DNA of 56,823 bases, counting the filler, from Sphacelaria rigidula (lineage: Eukaryota), in NCBI GenBank assembly GCA_964200075.2. It is 6 parts of 6 records of this genome, joined end to end, with 100 filler letters (N's around TTAATTAATTAA, not from the genome) between each part and the next. Parts side by side here need not be neighbours in the genome. Positions count along the whole stretch, not along the records: positions 47,438 to 56,823 come from CAXNAA020008614.1; 5 more parts are not named here. One strand, given 5' to 3'. The position numbers and the translations under genes are program-made. This document shows, in pieces, positions 2,890-56,823 of this stretch; the first letter of the stretch is position 1; every line of letters starts with the position of its first letter. The notes below the pieces were generated by a model. That model saw nothing but the letters and a program-made list of their open reading frames with translations. It ran no database searches and was not told the DNA's origin.

Positions 2890-3315
2890 TTATCGCTGTT
2901 CAGGCTTTGAAGTTCTTGATTTTGTTGATGAGGTACCGGTGACGCTTCTTGTTGGGATGTTTTGTTCCGATATCAGCGAGTTGATCCTCCGTGGATACGC
3001 AATGGATCTTGATCTTGCCCTCCTTATTATTTCGTGGATGTAGAAGAAACGTAAGGCTACGTGCTTCGTGCGAACGCTGAAAGTCCGATTGCCGATCACA
3101 TGGAACGTGGCCGTGTTGTCGATGTTTAGTGGCACGCTGTCAAACTCCGCCTCGAAGCTCAACTCCGTCATTATATTCGAGCAGAACACCGCCTCTTTCA
3201 TCGCTAGTGCCGCAGCCACCATATCGGCTTCCATCGTCGACATGGCCGTGAGACTCTGCAGCCCTGACTTGAAGGTCACCGGGGCCTTTGCCATCGTCAT
3301 GAAGTGCGATGACAT
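2890..3315 (-). pseudogene. Copia A RNase H domain remnant
   Basis: QSLTAMSTMEADMVAA...LNIDNTA...RTKHVALRFFYIHE, frameshifted near the end. Confidence 0.85.
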
Positions 3316-5108
3316 CAAACGCAGTCCCTGCGTGGCACCTGACTCCAACCCTGGGCTACCAGGCGCCCCTTGTGAGTTTCGTCAGCCTTGATTATATACA
3401 TCCACCTTGACCCGGTCGCCTTCATTCCCGGAAGAATCGTGAAAGGAGGTACCAGGGAGTAGACCCCGAGTTCCTGCAGACTCTTCGTCTCCTTGTCGGA
3501 CGCAGTTTTCCAGCGTTGTGCTTCCGGTAGCTCCATAGCCTCCTTCAAGGTGTCCGGAATTGTGGTCACCCTCTCCCCCTCCGAACGACATTGTAGTTGA
3601 GTTTTGGCGGCAGCGAGGGCGTACTCTGCAAAATTTAGCGCGTCCTCGTGGTGGGAAACGTCCGCCACCACCTCCTTGGTGTAGTATGCGAGCGCATTGA
3701 GTTCGCGCAAAGTTGCCGCACTGACCCCGTCGTCGGGCGTGTTGGGATTAGCGAGAGGTTGACCGCTGTATCGTGTCGCCAGGCGTCCTGGCGCACTCGA
3801 TGTTCGGGCGGAAGGGATGCTCCGCGTCTTGGCACGAGAGGCACCTACCGCAGAAGACGAAGATGCCTCTTCTGAGGCATTTGAAGATACTCCTCCTGAT
3901 TCTACACTCGACATAGCTTCCACCGGCGAACTCTTCCCAGGCGATGCAGGCCCTGACCCGGCGCGTAAGCGCAGATCATGGGCCGTATTTTCGCGGATTT
4001 TCTCCACAATGATCCGAAGTTCGTCGTTATCCAATCTCGATAGATCGATTCCCGCCATGTGGTTAAGCGAAGAATTGAGGTCAAGACGTGAAGTGTAGTT
4101 TCTCACGTATCTCACAAGTTGGTCATGGTCCTGGTACGTGAAATCAGTGTCGTTGAAATCGCCCGTCAATTCCGGAGCCCGCAGGGTAGATGGTGGCTCG
4201 ATAAAATGACGTTCCTGCCCTCCCTCACCTTCTTCCTTGCTGGATTGTAGATCCGAAACGACTTGCTGCCCATGATGTACCCACAGAGCTGTCCTTCCCA
4301 AGCGTGGGGGTCGAGCTTCTTGGCGTGCGTTTCAACGTCAACAAACGCCCTGGCTCCGATGAACCGAAGATGTCCGAGGTTTGCCTCCTTGCCGCCGTAA
4401 AAGCTTTTGTAGGGCGTGACATTTCCCAATGCTGCATGCGGCACCCGGTTCGTTAGGTATGCCGTGGTTTGCATGAGTTCTTCCCCCAGAAAATTCGGCA
4501 GGCCGGACTCCGTAAGAAGGCATCGCACCATCCCGGTGAAAGTCCTCCCGTCACGCTCGCAGGCACCAATCTGCTGTAGTGTTTTCGTTGAGGCAAACTC
4601 GTGTCGAATGCCAGTCTGAAGACGGTAGTCCTTGAACGCATCACCGGTGTACTCTCCGCTTCTATCCGTGCGAAGGTGCTCGACGCGCAACTCACTGGGA
4701 ACTACGAGCGCTTGCACGAACATTTTGAGTGAGTCGATGGAGTCGCTCTTGTCGTTGATGAGGAATATCTCCTTCCACTTGGTCCCTGGTCGGTGAACTT
4801 GCTGAGGTAGTTGCAGTCCTCCAACGCGGAAGGAGTGATGGGCTCCATAAGGTCGGTGTACACTGGTTGTAGGTGGCTTCCTTAGGGTGAGATTGTTGTG
4901 CGCTTTTCCCAATGGCACATACATCGCAAGCTGACACGCCCCCGTCGTAGTTGATGCCGTTGCCGTCCACCTTCTTCAAGACATCCAGACTCCTGCGGTT
5001 GACGTGTCCCAAACGCCGGTGCCACAGGTTCGCCGACTCTGCTCGCATGGCCGTTCCCGTTGTTCCACCCTTCGGATCTAACGAAAAGGGGTACAACAAT
5101 TCGTTCAA
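3316..5108 (-). pseudogene. Copia A pre-integrase, integrase and N-terminal RT fragment
   Basis: LWHRRLGHVN...CDVCAIGK (Zn-binding part), rve core TDRSGEY, PDTLKEAM...W...E..SL and KGRLVAQG motifs, spread over several frames. Confidence 0.85.
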
Positions 5109-5216
5109 GCCATTTTAACGGCAGAGTATGATTCCCACCTACAGGTGCGATTGAACAGAGTCGAAAATGGTAACAGCCCCCATGTTTGATACCGCAGCTA
5201 CTGAATAGAAGTGCCG

Positions 5217-6516
5217 TCACAGACCAGGCACGATGATGACCGAGCGTGAGACCGGGTACTTCCCCCCGTCTCGGTCGGTGACAGTACCAGAAATGGTGCC
5301 CGTCGCGACGCCTTCCACAATGTGTTTACCAGCGGTAACAATCCTGTGAGACTGCTTCAGTTTCGCTAGGTTTATCATCCGGCGTTGAATTCCGGGAGCG
5401 AGATCGCTGTCCAGGTAGTGTCCAGATGCACCCCTATCCACCAGCATGATCAGGGATGTGCTGTTGATGCCGTCCCCATTGTGCCCCACCGAGCCCAAAG
5501 CCGTTGGCGCAGCTGCGTATGACTCCCCATCCGAAACTTCGCCGAACGCCCCGAATAATCCTCGAATATCTGCAGTCTGTCGTTCCAGTGTTTTCTCCGG
5601 CATTGGTCCGAGAACGAAGACTGAATTGTCGGACTCTTCCAGCTTCTTGGACTCCTCCGCCACGTTCGTGAGCGTAGTCCCAACAGATGTGAAGGAAAAC
5701 CCCAACCTTGGCTATTGGGGTTCTGTTGTCCGGGCAATTCGCGCGCTGCCGATGTTGGCGAAGTTGATGCTGCTAGCTTGTTCCTTCTTTGCAGCCTTCT
5801 GCTTGAAGCACTGCTCGTCGCTGTGACTTTTTGTCTTGTGTAGAGAACACCATTTGGAATTTCCGTCTCCTTCTTTCTTCTAGTGCTTCTTCTTTTGCCT
5901 CTGCTGTTGTTGGTGCTCCTGCGAACTCTGCCGCAGAGGTTCAGGGCATGTGTTGCGACGCGGTGCCCGTATATGTCGCAGTTAAAGCACTGGATGCTGC
6001 TGAGGTCGCCGTGCGCCGCCTGCATGGCCACGCCGCGGCCCACAACAGATTTGGTGGATACGCGAGAACGGTTGTCGATGAACATGTTCCACATGGTGGA
6101 CTTTATCTTCTCCAACCCGTAGTTGCGGTCGCGGAAGCTGGTCTGTCGTACAAAGTCGTAGTCGTTCGTGATGGAGTGCAGAATAACGTCCTGGTAACGC
6201 TCGTCAGAGACCACCTCTCCCATGTCATACAGCCGGGCTCGAAGGTCGTCCATTTTGTAATAGAGGTCCTCCGGATCCTGTCCATGCTGCATCTTTGTAT
6301 TGCACAGCTCGTCGTAGCATACTCGTCGCGTCTCTTTCGTATAGCTGTCATATTTGCCCGCGAGGGCTTTCCAGGCAGCAATCCTATCGCCGAGTCCCTC
6401 TCCCTGCCTCCGGCTCTCGTACTGTCGCACGAGGATGTTCGCTGACCCGGTGGTGGCGAGGTACAAAATGGAAAAGTGGTCTTGATTACCGCGCTGCCGT
6501 TTTTCAATGGCTCCCG
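5217..6516 (-). pseudogene. Copia A gag (N-terminally interrupted) and aspartic protease
   Basis: AAWKALAGKYD...GQDPEDLYYKMDDLRARL gag-like segment, zinc knuckle at ~5990-5960, protease DSGA-like motif (DRGASGHY) at ~5440-5415. Confidence 0.85.
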
Positions 6517-6961
6517 TGTTATGGATATTGGATATACCCCAGGCACTGTGGGCAGTGGCTGTGTCTCTCGATGTCAGTCGAGACGTGATGTCACTTGCAG
6601 CGGGTAACACAATAGAAGTAGGAAGATACTTCCGTGCTGTAGAGACAATGATGTGACGATGACATGTGGCGCTTAGGTGGCCAATACACACACAGATGAA
6701 ATGCACAGAGTACGGTGAAGTCTAGACAACGGTAGCTATCCAGAGATAACAGGACAGCATATATACCAGAGCATCCAGAAAGATCCAGACAAGAGGAATG
6801 ACCTCCACGGCAGAACACACAGCGAAGTAGTTCCTCCGCATACCATACGTTACACATGAACCGATACATATTAGACCGACAAGGCCTGCTATGATACAAC
6901 AGCGGTGCTACGGAACTGAACATTGACTTGTACATGGACATGAGCCAACATTTCCATAACA
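6517..6961 (-). repeat. 3' LTR of copia element B (445 bp)
   Basis: Perfect 9-bp terminal inverted repeats TGTTATGGA...TCCATAACA. A polypurine tract (minus strand GAAGGGGAG, 6970-6962) abuts it. Confidence 0.9.
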
Positions 6962-7238
6962 CTCCCCTTCAATGAAAGTGCAGTGAAATCAAGAAACAAA
7001 CAAATACGCGATGAGAATCAAACAAATAATTCACTCTGTTCCACTAGTTTCCTTCTACGTGTTAACATACCTGCGTTAATATGTTTTCTGCAAATAATGT
7101 ATCACGAACCAGAATACTCTTAAATTCAAAGCTGCAGTGCTCCAGCGATCAGGGATGATGCGAGCCGTAAAAGACTACTCAAACGTAAACACGAAAATAC
7201 CACATACTCATGATGAAACCGTCAGAGGTTAAATCTGT

Positions 7239-9213
7239 TTATGATGATGTCGAAGACGTTAGAAAGTCTCGGAACTTGTGAAGAAGATGCTGAAGACGAT
7301 GCTTTATCAGATGCTTCGTCCCGATGTCAGCTAGGTTGTCCTCGGTGGATACGTAGTGAATCGTCATCTTTCCCTCGCCAACTAGTTCACGGATGTAGAA
7401 GAACCTCAACGCGATGTGTTCGTGCGAGAGCTGTACGCGCGGTTCCCGATCACATGTAGCGTCGCCGCGTTGTCGATGTACAGCGGCACCTTCTCGACGT
7501 CCTTTCCGAAACCAAGCTCGATCAGCATGTTGGAGCAGAAAATCGCTTCCTTCATGGTCAGAGCTGGAGCCACCAGCTCCGCCTCCGTCGTGGGCATAGC
7601 CATAAGACTTTGAACACCCGACCTGAAGCTCACGGGAGCCTTGCAGAACATCATGATGTAACACGACGTCGACTTGCCGTTGTCGGGGTTGTTCCCCCAG
7701 TTGGAATCAGAGAATGCTGTCAGCTTGAATCCTCCCTTCTTGTAATCTAAGGAAAAATCCGCTGTTCCAGCCAGATACCTGAGCAAGTGCTTGGCCGCAC
7801 CCATGTGCACTTTCGACGGCTTAGACATCGCACGAGCGAGTTGACAAGTGCTGTACATGACATCGTAGCGCCTTATCTGTGCTAGGTACATTACGGAACC
7901 TGTTATTGCCTGGTACCTCTGCTTCTCTTCCTCGTCGAGAAGAGTCTCCTCCGGTTGGTTGGTAGACAGTTCCTTTCCGAAACTGGGGGTGCTCACAGGA
8001 TTGCAGTCCGCCATGCCAAACTTCTCCAGGACGGACCTGGTGTAGTTCTCCTGGCTGATCGTGATCGTCTTCTGCTGGCGGTCACGCGTAACCTGCATCC
8101 CAAGCACGAGCGAGACGTCTCCCATGTCCGTCATCTCGAACCTGTCCATCAACTTCCGTTTGATGCTCTCGATAACCTGGATGTCAGCTCCAACGAGAAG
8201 AGGTCATCCACCTAGAGAGTCAGGATGATGACGACGCCGTTCTTCCTGTATATGTAAACACAGGTGTCAGACTTGAGCGGAACGAACCCGAGCGCGATGA
8301 GTTCCGGGTCGATGGTTTTGAACCAGTTTCCGGGGCTTTGAGCGAGTCCGTAAAGACTCTTGTGCAGTTTCATGACGAGAGGAACTCCATCCTTGTCCAT
8401 CTTCTCGAAGCCAGGTGCTGCTTCTACATGCACCCGCTGGTCGATAAGCGCGTACAAGAAAGCAGTGTTGACGTCCATTTGCACCACCTCCCAGTCCATC
8501 TCCGCGGCTATAGCCAACACCATTCGCACGCTCTGTAGACGGCAAACGGGGGCGTACGTGTTGCCGCAGTCCTTGCCCGGGACTTGGCCCCAGCCAGAGA
8601 CCACCAAGCGCGCTTTGTAGCTGTTGTCGGCTTTGATCTTCAAAACCCATTGGGTTTTGTAGATCCTGTCGCCAGCAGGGACGGTCTTGCGCGGGACCAG
8701 CGTGAAGACCTTCAGTTCTTCTAGCCTGTCCATTTCTTTTCGCGTAGCCGTGCGCCACAGGTTCGCGTCGGCTAGCCCCATGGCCTCTTTGAACGTCCTC
8801 GGAACCTTCTGTTGGACGTTTTGCGCTACGTTTTGCGCTGCGTAGGCGTAATGGACGAAGTACACGAACTCGTCCTTGTGGGCGATATCTTGTCTCTCCC
8901 CCTTCGTGTGGAGTCCAAGCCTTTTCAGTTCTCGAAGGGTCCTGGCGTTGGGCCCTTGTGTCACCGATCTGGTAGCAGGACGCTGCGATTTAGAATCACC
9001 ACGCCAACCACGAGATGCTGTGCCACCGTCGTCGTGCGATGTCGAACCAGACCCCGAACCACCGGAGTTATAACTTGACTCAGAACCACCACCGGTACCT
9101 GCAGGGCTCCCCCCCTCAGATGGAGCGAGTCTTTCTCCCCCAGGGTCGTCTCCCCCAGGGGGATCACCCGATGTATTGTCGGTTGGTGCGGTCTCAGAAG
9201 ACGCTGAAGTCAT
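7239..9213 (-). pseudogene. Copia B reverse transcriptase/RNase H, inactivated
   Basis: The catalytic YVDD reads TAG-VDD at ~8214-8203 and is followed by a 1-nt frameshift. There is a second frameshift near 7420. Confidence 0.9.
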
Positions 9214-9389: not shown

Positions 9390-9489
9390 NNNNNNNNNNN
9401 NNNNNNNNNNNNNNNNNNNNNNNNNNNNNNNNNTTAATTAATTAANNNNNNNNNNNNNNNNNNNNNNNNNNNNNNNNNNNNNNNNNNNN
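9390..9489. other. Artificial contig linker (N44-TTAATTAATTAA-N44)
   Basis: Exactly 100 bp, with a six-frame stop linker in the middle. Confidence 0.98.
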
Positions 9490-18877: not shown

Positions 18878-18977
18878 NNNNNNNNNNNNNNNNNNNNNNN
18901 NNNNNNNNNNNNNNNNNNNNNTTAATTAATTAANNNNNNNNNNNNNNNNNNNNNNNNNNNNNNNNNNNNNNNNNNNN
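18878..18977. other. Artificial contig linker
   Basis: Same 100-bp N44-TTAATTAATTAA-N44 structure. Confidence 0.98.
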
Positions 18978-28364: not shown

Positions 28365-28464
28365 NNNNNNNNNNNNNNNNNNNNNNNNNNNNNNNNNNNN
28401 NNNNNNNNTTAATTAATTAANNNNNNNNNNNNNNNNNNNNNNNNNNNNNNNNNNNNNNNNNNNN
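28365..28464. other. Artificial contig linker
   Basis: Same 100-bp structure. Confidence 0.98.
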
Positions 28465-37851: not shown

Positions 37852-37951
37852 NNNNNNNNNNNNNNNNNNNNNNNNNNNNNNNNNNNNNNNNNNNNTTAAT
37901 TAATTAANNNNNNNNNNNNNNNNNNNNNNNNNNNNNNNNNNNNNNNNNNNN
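37852..37951. other. Artificial contig linker
   Basis: Same 100-bp structure. Confidence 0.98.
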
Positions 37952-47337: not shown

Positions 47338-47437
47338 NNNNNNNNNNNNNNNNNNNNNNNNNNNNNNNNNNNNNNNNNNNNTTAATTAATTAANNNNNNN
47401 NNNNNNNNNNNNNNNNNNNNNNNNNNNNNNNNNNNNN
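47338..47437. other. Artificial contig linker
   Basis: Same 100-bp structure. Confidence 0.98.
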
Positions 47438-47569
47438 CAGCGCCGCGCCCCAAAGCGAAAAATGCGCTACCCTTTTTTGCTCCAAAAGCATAAGGGTGCA
47501 CCCTTTTTTGTATATTGCCCAACTCTAAATATCGCCCGGCGCATTCGCCTTTTAAAGAATCGGATCGGT

Positions 47570-48050
47570 AGAATTTCGGAACAGTATTTCGCAGGCCACT
47601 CACCTGCCCACGTTTGGTTTTCGTGTATTGAAATTTTGTGTGGGCGCTTTCTAAGGCATAATTAACAAAAAAAAGTGGGTCAGGTTGATTTTTTTCAATT
47701 TTTTCCACTGGTTTAGGGCGTTGTATTATGGTAAAGACCATATTTCACGAGAACGCCCTAACCTCTATGAAAAAATAGATAAATGGAAGGCTCATTTTTT
47801 TTTTCGGCACTCTTTTGTGGTTCTCCACACCAAAATTCGTCGCCATCCGCTAAATGCATCGATCGGAAGTTTCATAGAGATTTTAGTATTGGCGCCGTCT
47901 CCCTTAGGTATAGGAATTACTAGACATGGGGTTTAATCATCGAGATAATATGGGCCCGATTGTTTGAGTAGATGGGCACCTTCCCCTTGATTTAGACGAT
48001 TAATACGATATGCGGATCACGGCCCAACTCGTCTGTGTCGATGAGATATT
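47570..48050. repeat. Second copy of the dispersed repeat at 43680-44520
   Basis: For example taggaattactagacatgggg and agatgggcaccttccccttg are exact reverse complements of segments at ~43740-43820. Confidence 0.75.
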
Positions 48051-48075
48051 TCCGTTTTTAGGCTGGCTCAGCTCG

Positions 48076-48203
48076 CAATGTATGGAAGAAACGCAATGAG
48101 CTCCGGAATGTTGGAGGTGTATGTATTAGGAGTAGGAACGGTGCTCAGACTCGCAAGGAATGCGTGGTCAATGGTCAAACGACTAAGGCAAGCAACAAAT
48201 GAG
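48076..48203 (+). mobile_element. LINE 3'-end fragment with a C-rich tail
   Basis: Reverse complement of 23664-23780. Confidence 0.75.
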
Positions 48204-48639
48204 TACGCCCCCCCTCGTCCACCTCCGCCCCCCTGCGCCCTCCATCGCCAGCATCCTGCTGCGTGTCTCGTCCCCGCTATCCCCCGACCTCCGGACAACG
48301 TGGATCTATTCGGTACTACAGTTGCATTTCAGAGGTCGGAGGATGGCAAAAACGCAAATATGGATTTTAGTAGGCCCCAGTGAAGAAGCAAAACCTCAAC
48401 CCCGAGGAGCACACTCACTCGATGTGACGTCTCGTCACGCCCATATCGTACAGTGGAAACGGTTACACGCAACAAGCACGACTGCAAATGATCAGTAGCT
48501 TTTGACTGTGTTGTTGCGTGTTGTCATCCCAGCTATTCTAGACGGCAGTGACACCTTTCGGTGTTGGGCGCATAAGCCGGGGTCACACAGGAGGAAGGCC
48601 AGCACAAGAGTTTTTTTCTTCTTTTTCTTCTTATTCCGT

Positions 48640-48870
48640 ATTCCACCTTCTGCGGTACGTGCCTTTTATATGGCAAGAGGGGTTCAGCAGTCCCTCTCCT
48701 TCGTCGACCGTGAAATCGAGTTCTATGTACCCACGACGTAGTCGCTCCCGATCCTCTATTGGGCATGGTGTGAGGAAAAATCCTAGATCATGTGACTTCA
48801 CCGAGATTCGAACCCACAACTCAACCATTAGAAGCGTTCGAGGTTACCAACAGAGCAATCGGGGCGACCG
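48640..48870 (-). mobile_element. tRNA-derived SINE (second family)
   Basis: Minus strand starts cggtcgccccg, with a degenerate A box and a B box GGTTCGAATC (~48814-48805). The 3' boundary is approximate. Confidence 0.65.
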
Positions 48871-51800
48871 ACACTCACTAACAACAAAAAGTGAGCTGGC
48901 CAAGGTCGAGTATCAGGCTATGTCTTGTCGAAAAACAAATCGTGTTTGGAAAAAGGGACTTTTGCGTGATAGAGCGCGCATTAACAACCCTCTCTCCAAC
49001 AAAATAAATTTCGTCTGTGATTATTGATCTGTGCGTGTGTTCTTTGGCGAGATCCGAAAGAAGTGAGAAAATAATCATTCGGGATGTTTGAAAAAACACA
49101 CCGCTTGTCGGCAAACCCGACTGCGTGCAGAGGAGCCTGCCGTGCAAGCATTCGACACGCAACTATAGAAAGACGCAGATCCCGCAAACAATCAAACCCT
49201 GCCCGCAAACAATCGAAATTTGACTGGACTGCTGATGGCGTGTCTCGATATGGCAGAGTAACTATCCCCGCAGTACCACGGAAGCTTCTGGAGGTGAATA
49301 CTATATGTCGATCAAGGTACATACGACCCCCGGGGGTCATCCGTGTTTGAAATCCGAAACCTATTACGTCGCGGGTGTTATTCTCCCGGCCCTGCCCGGT
49401 ACGCCAGATGATGGTTTGAAAAATGGCAAAGGCTGTGTATAGAAAAGGCAATTGAGCAGCTTCAACTATCCGAGCCACCTCCTCAACTTCCCCGTGAAAC
49501 CGGGCAGGCGATATTTGCGAGTTACCCGGCAATCATGGTTCTGTTGCATCCGACAACAAGTAAATGGTGTGATGTGTGTTCATGAGTTGTATAAAAGGAT
49601 GTCGACTCGGGTGTGCTATTGTGGGAGTGGTATACCGGAGATACGCACCGTCAATTTTCGGTACTGTACGCTCGGCTTCCCGGCCGTAAGCCCTGGTACC
49701 TCTTCTCCGAGTCGCGATGGTGTGCAAACGCACGGTACGCCATGGATATCATCACATTGTAACCATACAGCACTCACACATCCGGGCGTCACGTGCAAAC
49801 CGTTCGCGAACGGGAACGGTCCGGGGCATCTTCTGGGGAAATTGCGCATTCGACCGCACAGCTTCTTCTCATCGCGCGACAACGGAGCACCTCATCCCCT
49901 ACCCTTCCAACCCGTCTCTCCGATATCCTACTCCACCGCAATACACCCACGTCGCCACTCGCAAACTACTGCTCTCGCCCACACTGTTTTGCACTACCCC
50001 CTGTTGATTACCCTGTGCTCGATGAATACCCTGTGCTACTCCTCCTACACCCAGACTTTATCCTGCCTATGCCTTTCCCGTCAGGCCTTCTGGCATCCTA
50101 CTCTGTCGGCCGCCGCCGCCGATTGTGCGGTACCTGCACCAGCCCAGCCGGCAGATAGCCCACAGTGTCCTCGGGCTGTGCAGTACCTCATCTATGGCCA
50201 ATCGGCGTGTTTTCTGCCTTGCCCTTGGATTGTATAGTGCATCAGCACGATACAGACGGAATGCTACCTGTAACTACCATTTCAGGCGACAGTATCAGGT
50301 TAGACCAGCCGGGAAATTCGATGCTACAGAGTCGGTTGCCGGCTGATATTCCGGCTATCTCACCTCCTGGGCATCCATTTTTGGCGGCCTTCTCATCGCT
50401 TTCAAGCGATCTCTCCTACGATGTAGCTGCATCATGTCGCCGTCCCCCCCGAACTTTACGCCCATCCAACGAAGGTCGCACGTGCCGTGGGAGACTTCCC
50501 GTGGCTATAGAGGAAGTGGACAGCAGCGGCAGGTCGTACAGCATGAGCATGGAGTTGTTCGTGTAAGGTTTTATTACATGATTTTCCGCCACGGTGCTGT
50601 AGCGAGAGACGCCGACGTCCGTGGAGCCATCCAGCGACACTCTTGCCTTTACGTTATCAAGTCCACCGAATCTGATACTCACTCACACGTGTCTCATCTC
50701 CATCATCGTGCTTTCCGTGACAGTGTCTCAACGACAGATAAAAGGCTGCAGCTGCGGGGTTCAATCTGGTTCCCATTCTACGGTAGAACTCCGAAGCTGC
50801 AAGATTGAGCGTCAGCACTGTCGGTATGACCCACTATCTAGAGTATGTATTGCATCATCACTGACAAGAAAAGCAGGCGAGCCAGTAGATCAACTTACCC
50901 TTCCTTATTTATTGACTGTGTTGTCGATGGGGTTAGCCTAACCCGACACGACTCACCCCAGACGGGTGGCGGTCGGGTGGAAGGGAATCGAAAGCAAAGC
51001 AAACGATTATCTTCCGAAATTTCACTTGAAGGATAGCTTTTGTATATACTTTGAAAATTTCGGAACATATGTTTTCGCATCATAAAGTCAGAGTGGAAGA
51101 ACTCCAGATTGGAAGCTTTTGAAAGCTCAGAGTGGGCGTTGAAACGTTCATAGCGGAAGCTGATGTGACGTGTCTTGACGTTATTTTTTTTTCTCACAGT
51201 GATTGGCCGCAGGTTGCCCTTCCAAATGTACAAATGACCAGCGTCCGGTTCGAAAATACACAGATCAGCACAGCTTTGACTGTACAATGAAATGGCGGGT
51301 CTGCGTTGTACCGTACCCTGCGGCACCGTACCGTGCCGTACACTACGCTTTACTGCACTTGCACTACTTCACTGCAATATGGTGCACTACAGGTCACTGC
51401 AGCGCTGTAGCGTTGTGCAGCGTAGAGTACAGACTGCAGTACAGACAGTGCAATGCAGATGCCCGAGACAGTACATTGCGGTACGGTGAACTACAGCGAT
51501 ACCGTTCAGTCAGTTGTACAGTAGCACAGTACAGTACGAAGCACTTCTGAACAACAGACAAGGCCGTATTACAACGATTTTCCTACATGCCACCCATAAC
51601 GGTGGCGCAAGACTTCATGGCCTGTGAGGGAATGGCAATGCAGTAATGTGTAGTACTACTTGTGCGATCTAGACTCCGAATCTTTCACACAGTCTGCTTC
51701 CAGCTGAGGCTGGCAAGAGTGGGGAACTGCACCCAAGGCAACGTTGTGTACCCGCTGAGCATTCAATTTTTACGCGATACAACCAAGCGAATGCTGATAC

Positions 51801-52609
51801 CATGGCGGCGTCCGAGAGTTCTTCTAATTGCAATGCCAAGCGTTGCTACTTCGTGAATGGTCCATTTTGATGAGCATGGCAGTTTTGTTGGATGTCCCAC
51901 TTTGCTTGTCAGAGTGTATTGATTGCGGACTGGCTGTGGCCATGGTGGTGAAGTTTGGGGTGGCTGAGAGGCACATCGCTTTTCATAGTGGAAATTTTCA
52001 AATGGGACTGTCACTGTCGAAAATTCGCTCTGGAAAACTTTTGATTGTGAAACGTGCGCCGTTACTGGCTATTTTCCTCTTCACTCTGACTCTAAGGTGC
52101 GAAAAATCATTATCCGGACCTTTCCGTTGTGCTCGTATGTTGAGCTGATCGTGTGAGCATTAACACACATACGTGTGACCTGAGCACGACAATTCTAAGG
52201 ACCTTCAGAGTCAAGCATTGGTCTCCTTGTACAATCGCCGCGCCGTGATGCAGTGACGGTAGCAGCTCTCGGCTTATTACAAAAAATGTCGCCGGTTCCC
52301 CTCTGCCTCTTGAAGCGCTTGAATTGTAAGAACACCACAGTTCACGAATCTGTTTGTCGCCAAGAACCTGTGATAGCGGTCCACCCACTTTTCCTTTTGA
52401 CACGATTTTTCGTTGCACTTGCTCCTCAATTATTCCAGGCCATTGCTGTTCTGGTCAGCTGGTACATACGCTCAGGTGTGTGGCGGTGTGGATTGTAGCA
52501 GCAGCGAGGCTCCCCATGCTGTGATCTTGGTACAGCCGTGGAAGGATGCCTACTCTATGTGCCCGCAGGGGTTCTCCGACGAAGGCACAGCGCGGCGGCT
52601 AGGTAGAAA

Positions 52610-54946
52610 GTGGAGTTTTGCTCCACACACGCTCGGGCTGGCATGGTGCATGTGAAGAGAAAGAGATGTGGCAAGGAGGACTGCTCCACAAGGCCGCCAT
52701 TCGGTGTAGCGGGTAGCGGAGAGACGGAGTTTGGCTCCACACACGCTCGGGCTGGCATGGTCAGTGCGAAAAAGAAGAGGTGCAGCGAGGAGGGCTGCTT
52801 CACATGGCCGTCGTTTGGTGTGGCGGGTAGCGGAAAGGCGATGTTCTGCGCCACACACGCTCTGGCTGGCATGGTCGATGTGAGAAGCGAGAGGTGTGGC
52901 GAGGTTGGGTGCTCCACAAGGCCGTTATTGGGTGTAGCGGGTAGCCGGAAGGCGGAGTTTTGCGCCACACACGCTCGGGCTGGCATGGTCGATGTGAGCA
53001 GCAAGAGGTGTGGCGAGGTTGGGTGCTCCTCAAGGCCGTTATTCGGTGTAGCGAGTAGCGGCAAGGCGGAGTTCTGCGCCATACACGCTCGGGCTGGTAT
53101 GGTCCATGTGGAAAGTAAGAGGTGTGGCGTGGTTGAGTGCTCCGCAAATCCGTCATTCGGTGTAGCGGGTAGCGTGGAGGCGGAGTTCTGCGCCAGACAC
53201 GCTCGGGTTGGCATGATCGATGTGGAAAGCAAGAGGTGCGGCGAGGAGGGCTGCTCCACCAACCTATCATTCGGTGTAGCGGATAGTGGGAAGGCGGAGT
53301 TCTGCGCCAAACATACACGGACTGGCATGGTCAGTGTGAAAAACAAGAAGTGCGGCGAGGAGGGCTGCTCCACATGGCCATTGTTCGGTGTAGCGGGGAG
53401 CCGGAAGGCGGAGTTCTGCGCCACGCACGCTCGGGTTGGTATGGTCAATGTGAAAAACAAGAGGTGCGGCGAGGAGGGCTGCCCCACATGGCCATTGTTC
53501 GGTGTAGCGGGTAGCGGTAAGGCGGAGTTCTGCGCCACGCACGCTCGGGCTGGCATGGTCGATATGAAGACCAAGAGGTGCGGCCAGGAGGGCTGCTCCA
53601 CAAGGCCGTCATTCGGTGTAGCGGGTAGCCGGAAGGCGGAGTTCTGCGCCAGACACGTTCGGGCTGGCATGGTCCATGTGAGAAGCAAGAGGTGTGGCGA
53701 GGTTGGGTGCTTCACAAGGCCGTCATTCGGTGTAGCGGGTAGCGGGAAGGCGGAGTTCTGCGCCAGACACGCTCGGGTTGGCATGGTCGATGTGGAAAGC
53801 AAGAGGTGCGGCGAGGAGGGCTGCTGCACATCGCCGTCATTCGGTGTAGCAGGTAGCCGGAAGGCGGAGTTCTGCGCTACGCACGCTCTGGCTGGCATGG
53901 TCAATGTGAAAAGCAAGAGGTGCGGCGAGGAGGGCTGCTCCACAAATCCGTCATTCGGTGTAGCGGGTAGCCGGAAGGCGGAGTTCTGCGCCAAACACAC
54001 ACGGGCTGGCATGGTCGATGTGATAAACAAGAAGTGCGGCGAGGAGGGCTGCTCCACATGGCCATGGTTTGGTGTAGCGGGTAGCGGGAAGGTGGAGTTC
54101 TGCGCCATGCACGCTCGGGCTGGCATGGTCGATGTGAAAAGCAAGAGGTGCAGTCGGGAGGGCTGCTCCACAAGGCCGTCATTCGGTGTAGCGGGTAGCG
54201 GGAAGGCGGAGTTCTGCGCCAGACACGTTCGGGCTGGCATGGTCGATGTGAGAAGCAAGAGGTGCGGCGAGGAGGGCTGCTCCACATGGCTGTCGTTTGG
54301 TATAGCGGGTAGCCGGAAGGCGGAGTTTTGCGCCAGACACGCTCGGGCTGGCATAGTCGATGTGAAAAATAAGAGGTGCGGCGAGGATGGTATAGACTCC
54401 ACACCCTCGCCGCCGACCGCCTCGGGACAGGCCACCAGCGCTGCGGCAGCAGATGAGGTTCCGCCAGATAGGGCACCGAGGCGTATGAAAGTGAAAATGG
54501 AGATGACTCTGCCCGACGCGCGTGTTTCTGAACAGATAACGAGCAACGAACTAGCTGCTGCACGATCGAGCCTTCATTGTGGCGTGGTCAACGGCAATTC
54601 CAGCAGCATCGAAGACCCGAGCTTCGGTAGCAGCATCGCTAGTGGAAGGAGGAGCGCCAAGCGGCTACGTGGAGTAGCGCCGGTGGAAGTGGCATTTGGT
54701 GCGGCAACGTCGGCTGATGTGATGTCTATGGAGGAGGGCGACGATATGAAGTTTGATTTGGGGGTGTCCACTTTTGCACCTTCTGGTCACCAGCTACGTG
54801 GAGTAGCGCCGGTGGAAGTGGCATTTGGTGCGGCAACGTCGGCTGATGTGATGTCTATGAAGGAGGGCGACGATATGAAATTTGAGTTGGGGGTGTCCAC
54901 CTTTGCACCTTCTGGTCACATTTCCGCGATGGTATCCAGCGGATAA
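52610..54946 (+). CDS. EsV-1-7 cysteine-rich repeat protein (15 full 38-aa repeats plus a low-complexity C-terminus). First in-frame ATG is at 52643
   Basis: The unit GMVDVKSKRCGEEGCSTRPSFGVAGSRKAEFCARHARA (C-x4-C-x16-C-x2-H) is the EsV-1-7 motif known from Ectocarpus and its virus. The frame is uninterrupted for 2.3 kb. Confidence 0.92.
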   Translation: MEFCSTHARAGMVHVKRKRCGKEDCSTRPPFGVAGSGETEFGSTHARAGMVSAKKKRCSEEGCFTWPSFGVAGSGKAMFCATHALAGMVDVRSERCGEVGCSTRPLLGVAGSRKAEFCATHARAGMVDVSSKRCGEVGCSSRPLFGVASSGKAEFCAIHARAGMVHVESKRCGVVECSANPSFGVAGSVEAEFCARHARVGMIDVESKRCGEEGCSTNLSFGVADSGKAEFCAKHTRTGMVSVKNKKCGEEGCSTWPLFGVAGSRKAEFCATHARVGMVNVKNKRCGEEGCPTWPLFGVAGSGKAEFCATHARAGMVDMKTKRCGQEGCSTRPSFGVAGSRKAEFCARHVRAGMVHVRSKRCGEVGCFTRPSFGVAGSGKAEFCARHARVGMVDVESKRCGEEGCCTSPSFGVAGSRKAEFCATHALAGMVNVKSKRCGEEGCSTNPSFGVAGSRKAEFCAKHTRAGMVDVINKKCGEEGCSTWPWFGVAGSGKVEFCAMHARAGMVDVKSKRCSREGCSTRPSFGVAGSGKAEFCARHVRAGMVDVRSKRCGEEGCSTWLSFGIAGSRKAEFCARHARAGIVDVKNKRCGEDGIDSTPSPPTASGQATSAAAADEVPPDRAPRRMKVKMEMTLPDARVSEQITSNELAAARSSLHCGVVNGNSSSIEDPSFGSSIASGRRSAKRLRGVAPVEVAFGAATSADVMSMEEGDDMKFDLGVSTFAPSGHQLRGVAPVEVAFGAATSADVMSMKEGDDMKFELGVSTFAPSGHISAMVSSG
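52612..54388 (+). repeat. Coding minisatellite, 114-bp unit x ~15.5
   Basis: ggcatggtc...gagttctgcgcc recurs every 114 bp with no indels. Confidence 0.95.
54664..54919 (+). repeat. 129-bp (43-aa) in-frame tandem duplication
   Basis: gctacgtggagtagcgccgg...ccttctggtcac starts at 54664 and again at 54793, with only a few substitutions. Confidence 0.92.
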
Positions 54947-55683
54947 AAGAAGTAGCTTTATGAATCCATCTGTACATATGGGTTTGCCAGCTCACGTTGG
55001 CTTGGGGCTGTTGGGTGACATTTCGCCGTATTTGTGCGGGTCTACACGACCATAAAACATGAAAAACAAGTCGGTTAGTCCGGGCTGTATGTTGTTGCTC
55101 TGTTGGGTGACGGGTGGGGGGGACGGGGACGCCGAATAATCGCTCACGCATCATTGTGTTTTGGAATATTTTATTCTCTGCACAGTATCCTGGTCCTTTC
55201 CACATCGTTCCTCGTACTTCCAAGCTCATCCGGCTTGTTTTTTCTAGCACTCCCATCGCTTTTGCACGGCAATGTGCAGGAGTGGTGCCGTCGTAGCCGC
55301 TGCGTTGCTCGCATGACCATCCCGTTCTTCCCAGTACACACGGTCGGGGTCTTGATGTTCCTGGCGGCACAAGTGCGCGTCGGCAAGACGACGAGTGGAG
55401 TGGCGTTGAATATGCCAAGCGCTTGATAATATCAACATGGATAAAACAATGTTTTGGTGAGATTTAGGTTAATAGACCGGGTTGAGAGTCAACAATTCAT
55501 TCAAAAGACGGTCACATGCACATTTCAAATTGTTGCACGACACGTTGATGTTTGGCATAATAAGAGGCTAGTTGACCCATAGACCGCAAGGGTAGGTCCC
55601 CTGAGCTGAATCGCCGTCGCTTCTCACTTGAAAAAAGTGGAGGTGATCCATATTAACTACCCGCACCGCGGTCTAAGGATCAG

Positions 55684-55976
55684 CCGTCGTTGAGCTACGT
55701 TTTAGAATGGTTTACACAATTTTACAAGTATCGCTGGCCCTAACCATAACCCCAACCCAACGCATACCGAGAACTCTCGGGCAAGGGCGGCACACACACT
55801 CCCTAGGCAAAGTGCGGCCTTGGTAGACCCCTAATCGGCGCCCGTGGCGCCGATTCCAACGAAAACGCGTTTTGTGCAGGCGAGGAGCACACGGGACTGT
55901 CAGCCTCACTAACTTCCGATCCTCGTCGTTTACAACCAAGTAATATCAACCATTCTGAAACGTAGCCCAACGCCGG
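55684..55976. mobile_element. MITE, same family as 11052-11351
   Basis: TIR ccgtcgttgagctacgttttagaatggtt / aaccattctgaaacgtagcccaacgccgg, with a shared interior. Confidence 0.85.
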
Positions 55977-56823
55977 TAAAGTCTACTGGATCGACGTGTC
56001 ATTATTCCAATTTCAAATTGGTTGTTGTCTCAGGCTATTCCAGATTCGGCATTGGATTTCTGTAACAGAAACCACTCTCGTTTTTTTCGGAACACTTTTT
56101 AAAAAACGAGGAAAACTTTTTGAAAAACTGCTCGAACCATGACGCCATTATATGGAGTACAGGCTAGTACACTCAAAACAAAATACTTTTGCAGTGGTAT
56201 ATGGACTACATAATACTACTCTAAACGCAGAAGGAAAGAGGCGGATGCCCGCAACAGCAGCGCCCCAAAGTGGAGATGACTGACGAGTCCCGGAAACGCA
56301 GCGCATACTACTGACGGCCTGGAGCGGAAGGAGAAGGAGGAAGATATCGTTGATCGGAAGTGGGGATGGGGTTATGGGCAGAGACGATCGGCTGCGTACC
56401 ATTAGTCGGGGTGAGCCGTACACTGTGTCTGTGTACTGTGCAGGCTATTCAAGTGGCAGCACGAGTAGCGGGAGTGGTCCCGTATCGCATCACTTGTCAA
56501 CTGTTCAGAGCACTATAGGCCCTGTACAGTAGTACTTCTTTACTGCTGTCGTCTGTTGCCCGCTGTACGTAGTGTACAGTCCGCACAGCAGACAGCAGAC
56601 AACGGTACTTGTAGTACGATGATGGTGTGATTTCACAAGTTTCCCTACTTGCGGGTATACGGCCGTGTAAAGTACTCAGAGCATCCAGATGTCGTTATCT
56701 GCCTGGATGCATTGTGTTCCTGCGCATGGGCTGCGGCGGGTGTGAACGGTTGTCATTACGCAATGCACACTCTCATGTCAGGATTACACTTGAACACCCA
56801 GCTAATATAATGTTTTCCATGCC

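Follow-up and report, generated by a model that had tools for sequence, protein, structure and literature searches.

A fifteen-unit EsV-1-7 repeat array in Sphacelaria rigidula with several variable positions per module: a candidate nucleic-acid-binding protein

In this work, we analyzed a stretch of 56,823 nucleotides from Sphacelaria rigidula (assembly GCA_964200075.2), which consists of six parts of six records joined with filler letters. This whole stretch is referred to as the window, and all coordinates count along it. Within its last part (positions 47,438 to 56,823; CAXNAA020008614.1), a plus-strand open reading frame (ORF; 52610-54946) encloses a long tandem array of EsV-1-7 repeats, and the gene is a new member of the known EsV-1-7 family. 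We tentatively read its product as a multi-module nucleic-acid-binding array that would have several specificity residues in each module and an acidic effector tail. EsV-1-7 genes form one of the largest gene families of brown algae and include the developmental regulator IMM. Three handles on their function are available here: a fixed set of variable positions that viral and host arrays have in common, the joining of the repeat to a nuclease fold in giant viruses, and a long and probably transcribed host array.

In the proposed mechanism, each module would bind one zinc ion, and the basic array would bind nucleic acid, with DNA as the most likely ligand. The preferred sequence would be tuned by several variable residues in each module that adjoin the metal ligands. 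Such a reading mode would be nearer to that of C2H2 arrays, with several residues per module, than to the one-residue-one-base code of transcription activator-like effectors (TALEs). The acidic tail would serve as an effector or bind a partner, and the protein would then be a candidate regulator of the transcription type, as is IMM.

Architecture of the array

Tandem Repeats Finder (TRF) detected the array at 52612-54387, with a period of 114 bp, 15.6 copies, 85% matches, and 0% indels. The Pfam family PF19114 (EsV_1_7_cys) matched the protein in 16 stretches (E 1e-213; 691.2 bits against a cut-off of 25); no other Pfam domain was found in the window protein, and neither KRAB nor SET was among the matches. 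When registered on the first Cys (52667 + 114k), the array contains a half unit in front, 15 complete 38-residue units (52667-54376, plus strand; defined by TRF, Pfam, and unit registration), and a truncated 16th unit behind, which bears out the original prediction of 15 indel-free 114-bp units. The spacing within a unit is C-x4-C-x16-C-x2-H-x12. Because Gly replaces the third Cys in unit 1, 14 of the 15 units have all four putative metal ligands, and this ligand pattern suggests that the Cys3His set of each unit forms a zinc site. The array is strongly basic (isoelectric point, pI, 9.2; net charge +33). A search of all six frames of the window with a profile built from the array units found no second EsV-1-7 gene.

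Two side observations concern the array itself. A minus-strand ORF of 663 residues (52555-54546) runs antisense through its entire length, as is expected because the repeat is periodic and free of stops. At position 53889, most contigs of four sequencing runs have G and the window has T; the G would turn a Leu into Arg, which is the consensus residue at position 28 of unit 11. This mismatch may be an allele, or may come from contigs of other units placed at 95% likeness.

Variable positions within the array

The original prediction had proposed a four-state hypervariable residue on a homogenized scaffold. This residue is the third after the second Cys (position 9 of the unit), and the string given for it (R,W,R,R,N,N,W,W,R,R,S,N,W,R,W; codons AGG/TGG/AAT/AAC/TCG) is exact. 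The other variable sites listed were likewise exact, namely, positions 11 (S/L/P/W), 25 (the residue before the His; T/I/R/K/M), and 33 (the residue after GM(V/I); D/H/N/S). The picture of one special residue did not hold, as at least eight sites vary, with eight having entropy above 1.2 bits. In this array, positions 25 (1.97 bits) and 35 (1.96 bits) have higher entropy than position 9 (1.78 bits); further variable positions are 33, 11, 36, 3, 18, and 7. The scaffold is also less homogeneous than was claimed, since 5 to 28 of the 114 bases differ between units and synonymous divergence (dS) between them is approximately 0.25 per site.

Most of the divergence between units falls on the loop that follows the second Cys (positions 7, 9, and 11) and on positions 18, 25, 33, 35, and 36. 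The variable positions 7, 9, and 11 alternate with the more conserved positions 10 and 12. This alternation, and the nearness of the variable sites to the ligands, would be compatible with one patch around the metal site.

Variable positions across the family

A word-index search found 235 relatives of the array at E <= 0.001 among 8000 scored candidates. The best named relatives are brown-algal (Sphacelaria rigidula, Ectocarpus, Pylaiella, and Scytosiphon), and most others are metagenomic. For the site-by-site analysis, we cut 611 units from the 120 listed of these 235 relatives and measured how often two units within one protein differ at a site. Position 9 ranks first in this set (0.81), followed by positions 36 (0.75), 11 (0.73), 35 (0.65), and 7 (0.64). 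It also ranks first among the 49 proteins without a nuclease motif (222 units; 0.83, followed by 0.79 at position 36 and 0.72 at position 35) and second among 69 distinct giant-virus arrays (381 units; 0.73, with 0.74 at position 11 and 0.67 at position 36). The claim of a hypervariable residue is thus correct in that position 9 stands out across the family, and overstated in that it is one of about seven such sites, all of which are at most five residues away from a putative metal ligand. The within-protein mismatch profile of the family follows the entropy of the window array (Spearman 0.65 for the 120-relative set and 0.72 for the non-nuclease set), and at the top variable site of the family the window array has chemically contrasting residues.

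The composition of this site is uneven. Among the 611 units, position 9 is most often R (175), Q (143), N (53), or H (40), which are common base-contacting residues. Trp occupies position 9 in 5 of the 15 window units versus 8 of 203 units of the non-nuclease proteins, and is not among the ten commonest residues of this position in the nuclease-linked set. In viral units, insertions are concentrated after positions 6-9 (39 units), as a surface loop would show.

As a separate observation, one relative (P0013) has a summed match to Zf_WRKY19 (PF24906; 35.3 bits versus a cut-off of 27) on its EsV-1-7 array, with no single stretch passing. This match may reflect only the shared C-x4-C knuckle.

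Nuclease-fused relatives in giant viruses

An E-x-D-E-x-x-H motif is present behind the array in 78 of the 120 listed relatives and in none of the named brown-algal ones. It sits in a conserved C-terminal region of approximately 250 residues of metagenomic relatives. For one of these proteins, P0097, an AlphaFold2 model based on an alignment of 78 proteins has a mean predicted local distance difference test (pLDDT) score of 92.1. A Foldseek search with this model gave no match at E <= 0.001 (best E 0.06), and its top rows are nearly all PD-(D/E)XK nucleases. According to VIA, residues 283-429 align to the catalytic domain of I-Bth0305I (3r3p_A; Z 9.0, root-mean-square deviation [rmsd] 3.1, 94 aligned) and to Vsr (1cw0_A, Z 8.9, rmsd 4.9, 131 aligned; 1vsr, Z 8.0), followed by a long list of further nucleases at Z 5-6.7; values of Z < 8 are common by chance, and those of P0097 are near that level. 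The residues E344, D346, E347, and H350, invariant in the alignment of the relatives, would fit a catalytic site. I-Bth0305I, the nearest solved nuclease (PDB 3r3p), is a homing endonuclease of the EDxHD family (PMC3239194).

These fusions are widespread. On viral contigs, at least 541 of 598 matched stretches encode array plus nuclease-fold relatives, many of them in giant-virus bins, and one 420-kb viral record has two full copies and a remnant. Near-identical giant-virus genes differ by one exact 38-residue unit (L001 4001-5326 versus L002-L004), which provides a natural unit-number variant. Because the array precedes a DNA-cutting domain, where a targeting domain would be expected, the fusion to a Vsr/I-Bth0305I-like nuclease fold is the best hint that EsV-1-7 units may bind nucleic acid, and DNA in particular.

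Known systems and wider meaning

Within the EsV-1-7 family (IPR043822; IMM, EsV-1 gene 7, and brown-algal genes), the window gene shares the repeat, the ligand spacing, the tandem 38-residue units, and the lack of any other Pfam domain. It differs by the frequent Trp at position 9, a duplicated end motif in its tail, and the longest array among its tail relatives. Compared with the giant-virus proteins that combine an array with a Vsr-like nuclease, it has the same repeat and the same variable positions, but it has no nuclease, lies in a host context with pieces of a copia-type element, and has an intron upstream.

The C2H2 arrays of KRAB-ZNF proteins and PRDM9 are tandem zinc modules with a few fixed variable positions, unit duplication, and large lineage-specific families. 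The window array resembles them in its tandem zinc-type modules, fixed variable positions, growth by unit duplication, and membership in a large family specific to a lineage. However, its units differ in ligand pattern and length, do not match the fold, and are not accompanied by KRAB or SET.

A wider proposal is that EsV-1-7 represents a new class of modular, sequence-reading, DNA-binding zinc protein, in which positions 7, 9, 11, 25, 35, and 36 would specify bases. Viruses would use such arrays to aim homing-type nucleases, and brown algae would have retained arrays lacking the nuclease, the 15-unit window gene among them, and expanded these into lineage-specific regulators in the manner of the vertebrate KRAB-ZNF family. 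We regard this extension as possible, though less likely than not. If true, such that the binding motif moves with position 9 or with the units, it would provide a new kind of recognition module that can be programmed, along with a new type of transcription factor in algae.

According to a preprint (Denoeud et al.), the EsV-1-7 family has up to 335 members in one species. The sources examined describe a great expansion of this family in brown algae, place IMM in it, and report that the Ectocarpus members have no other Pfam domain. Our literature search found nothing on nuclease fusions or variable positions of EsV-1-7 proteins; the supplementary gene tables of the preprints, which were outside this search, might list the window gene.

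Evidence against nucleic-acid binding

Several lines of evidence, from structure, literature, and patterns of substitution, weigh against the reading of the window protein as a nucleic-acid-binding array. The link to DNA comes from the relatives only, because the window gene is without a nuclease: no such domain was found in it, the motif is absent from its tail, and hhalign gave 0.09% against the 78-protein profile. The viral C-terminal domain itself had no naming match in Pfam (best E 0.11), PHROGs or NCBIfam (both chance-level), or PDB sequences (0 at E <= 10), and the match of its model to a nuclease fold, judged from the Foldseek and Z values given above, is middling.

For the array, a model of six window units reached moderate confidence only (pLDDT 75.3; predicted template modeling score 0.33). 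Each modeled unit has a short strand (12-14), a bridge (22), a one-turn helix (24-26), and a second strand (31-33), and the same per-unit pattern is found in the high-confidence viral model (P0097). No solved analogue of the window array was found by Foldseek (none at E < 1) or VIA (best Z 2.4, to RING domains), and a search against PDB sequences gave 0 matches at E <= 10. The missing fold match shows neither a new fold nor fold identity. The only structural neighbors, all very weak, are RING, LIM, FYVE, and PHD-type modules, and RING domains bind proteins. In the available text of the preprints, review, and primer on this family, the function of EsV-1-7 is called unknown, and the available text of the literature examined contains no binding data for any EsV-1-7 protein.

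The substitution patterns bear on an alternative that we consider possible, although rather less likely, namely, neutral drift. The variable positions would then be unconstrained surface-loop residues on a structural or protein-binding zinc repeat that does not read nucleic acid, a role that its very weak structural neighbors would suit. The comparisons within the array and between homologs described below provide most of what favors drift. Against it, the residues at position 9 are not randomly mixed but mostly R, Q, N, and H, the array has a strongly basic character, and the repeat is fused to a nuclease fold in the numerous viral loci described above, at the place of a targeting domain.

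Duplication history and selection within the array

The array grew as single units and small blocks were duplicated. The closest pairs differ at 5 (units 9/14), 9 (5/10), 9 (8/13), and 12 (6/12) of 114 bases. Mean pairwise nonsynonymous divergence (dN) among the 15 units is 0.159 and dS is 0.251, which corresponds to a ratio of 0.63 (Nei-Gojobori). At the nine most variable sites, which were chosen after seeing the data, the proportion of nonsynonymous differences (pN) is 0.33 versus 0.31 for synonymous differences (pS), as drift would predict; at the other 29 sites, pN is 0.08 versus 0.18 for pS.

Changes were counted as the minimum number of label changes required on a maximum-likelihood tree of the units. 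This tree is poorly resolved (7 of 12 inner branches are open), and the count underestimates synonymous changes that fall on the same branch as an amino-acid change. The fewest amino-acid changes on this tree, 79, are overdispersed across sites (index 1.8, p 0.002); the variation is therefore uneven, in contrast to the even spread that had been set beforehand as speaking against a recognition code. Seven changes are needed at site 18, six at sites 25 and 33, five at sites 11, 35, and 36, and four at site 9. Measured against a yardstick of 25 synonymous-only changes on approximately 26 synonymous sites, site 9 has 4 changes versus 2.5 expected (P 0.24), again as drift would have it. The best site, 18, has P 0.003 before correction for 38 sites, and after this correction none of the sites exceeds the synonymous rate.

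The original prediction had likened the chemically radical changes at fixed positions to PRDM9 contact residues, and had itself named variation no greater than synonymous as evidence to the contrary. As the results at site 9 and in the variable set are of the latter kind, the argument for PRDM9-like selection fails. The residues at position 9 also mostly follow unit ancestry. For 10 of the 15 units, the nearest unit (with codon 9 left out) shares the same state, and pairs or groups such as 9/14, 6/12, and 7/8/13 are duplicates with an inherited state; the string thus reflects roughly four or five events rather than fifteen draws. An odd case is the pair of units 5 and 10, which have two differences within codon 9 and seven in the other 111 bases. 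A short stretch converted from an N-type unit would account for this pair as well as selection would.

Turnover between orthologs and homologs

Codons were compared by site class in ten pairs of viral genes with 71-93% protein identity. In the variable set (positions 7, 9, 11, 24, 25, 35, and 36), dN is 0.337 and dS is 0.643, for a ratio of 0.52, versus 0.20 at the scaffold sites and 0.13 in the non-repeat part. Because this ratio is below 1, the variable sites are not free of constraint, which argues against pure drift; the absence of any excess of amino-acid over synonymous change also undermines the PRDM9 analogy. In two of the ten pairs, the variable set has a ratio above 1 (1.25 and 2.43), with few synonymous sites. 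For positions 9 and 11 alone, pN is 0.36 and 0.38, respectively, versus a global pS of 0.41. Lack of constraint alone would give such near-synonymous rates at these two positions.

A broader comparison covered 291 protein pairs with 50-90% identity, in which units that are in register show no greater likeness than those that are not, a pattern that drift would also produce; at 50-75% identity, there was no sign of conserved unit identity. At >= 70% identity (15 pairs, 88 unit pairs), position 9 differs in 0.67 of comparisons in register versus 0.85 out of register. This comparison of registers is uninformative on neutral versus adaptive change. Overall, the variable sites change rapidly; constraint on them is weak on average, and their rate does not generally exceed the neutral one. 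This behavior fits either weak constraint or conservation mixed with occasional specificity change.

Other readings of the array

The preferred reading, a module array that binds DNA through several residues per unit, has a close variant in which the array would bind RNA or single-stranded nucleic acid. The Trp at position 9, frequent in the window array and rare in its relatives, would then stack on bases, and the basic charge of the array would suit such a ligand equally. We consider this variant improbable, as the fused nuclease domains of the viral relatives resemble the DNA enzymes Vsr and I-Bth0305I.

TALE repeats, known from Xanthomonas effectors, are helical, metal-free repeats of about 34 residues that are near-identical outside two residues. 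The window units have a similar length (38 residues) and position-specific variation, but they are zinc-type and modeled with short strands. The strict version of the original prediction, in which one residue per unit reads one base like the repeat-variable diresidue of a TALE or evolves under PRDM9-like diversifying selection, is very improbable: it could draw on the first rank of position 9 in two of the family sets, the codon 9 difference of units 5/10, and the two viral pairs above 1, but units only 85% alike with at least eight variable sites, a position-9 state for which four changes on the unit tree suffice, the lack of sites above the synonymous rate, the pooled viral ratio, and models with short strands and a one-turn helix instead of a helical solenoid all speak against it.

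Acidic tail and its subfamily

The truncated 16th unit is followed by an acidic C-terminal tail (54377-54943 for both, plus strand; stop codon at 54944-54946). The tail has 189 residues and a pI of 4.8, and contains a basic KRLR cluster and an acidic-hydrophobic end motif, both of which are common to its relatives. A 129-bp tandem duplication (54664-54919, plus strand; TRF period 129, 2.0 copies, 96% matches) doubles the last 43 residues of the tail and hence this end motif, which may be of an activation or partner-binding type.

An exhaustive search found 15 proteins related to the tail at E <= 0.001 (best 66% identity, E 1e-40), and seven of the eight that were looked up are from Sphacelaria rigidula. 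When the tail was compared by word index with proteins of 427-1362 residues, no match was obtained, because these length limits left out the shorter relatives, and the similarity of the tail to P0002 is not significant (BLASTP, E 0.2). According to the unit model, the relatives that share the tail have 1 to 5 units each, so with 15 units the window gene has the longest array of this tail-defined subfamily. Several ligands are broken in the closest tail relative, P0121.

Gene model and transcription

Hints of transcription came from public sequencing runs whose kind was guessed as RNA, none being recorded as such; two of these, X4 and X5, have identical figures and may be one data set. One contig of X5 joins 50822 to 52438, skipping 1615 bases with GT..AG ends. 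From this joint and its splice letters, we read, as a hint only, an upstream exon ending near 50822, an intron (50823-52438, plus strand), and the array exon starting at 52439. Other contigs are collinear with the genome over 52471-52766, 52737-52959, 52969-53207, 54306-54564, and 54830-55083, and these, with the joint, hint that the array gene is transcribed and spliced. Contig depth in X4, X5, and X7 is high over the gene and low over 49399-49836, and that in X1 is even; these depths do not allow a ranking of expression.

In three-frame translation, the leader of the array exon (52439-52642, plus strand) shows short upstream ORFs and an in-frame TAG, along with repeats that have decayed to remnants. 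This TAG (52604-52606) closes the repeat frame upstream of 52607, with repeat homology fading further upstream, and is retained in the transcript, given the collinear contigs over 52471-52766. The first in-frame ATG after it, at 52643, is the likely start codon and is followed by a basic linker before unit 1 (52643-52666, plus strand). It corresponds to the Met of 'GMV' in the half unit and would yield a protein of 767 residues, with a single exon encoding all of the approximately 767. The gene models of seven relatives (P0121, P0123, P0003, P0125, P0128, P0129, and P0130) start at the same place of the unit, which makes a start at 52643 likely, those starts being gene predictions themselves. 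Downstream of the stop codon, RNA-like contigs continue at similar depth (54830-55036 and 54830-55083), a weak hint of the start of a 3' untranslated region (54947-55083, plus strand).

Next to this gene, RNA-like contigs over 50362-50909 have joints at 50504 to 50687 and 50504 to 50899 with CT..AC ends, equivalent to GT..AG on the minus strand. These suggest a spliced minus-strand transcript adjoining the upstream exon of the array gene.

Genomic context

The context in the window is host-like. Pieces of a copia-type long terminal repeat retrotransposon, with gag, retroviral SH3-like, and RVT_2 matches, are located in the window at 3315-9213 on the minus strand. No viral genes were seen in the window, though no systematic search for them was made.

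Paired runs of 44 Ns, 12 bases apart, are present at 9390-9489, 18878-18977, 28365-28464, 37852-37951, and 47338-47437, recurring every 9487-9488 bases. Such evenly spaced pairs look like an artifact of masking or assembly rather than biology. Near the start of the window, a 43-bp tandem repeat with seven copies and 89% matches is found at 455-753.

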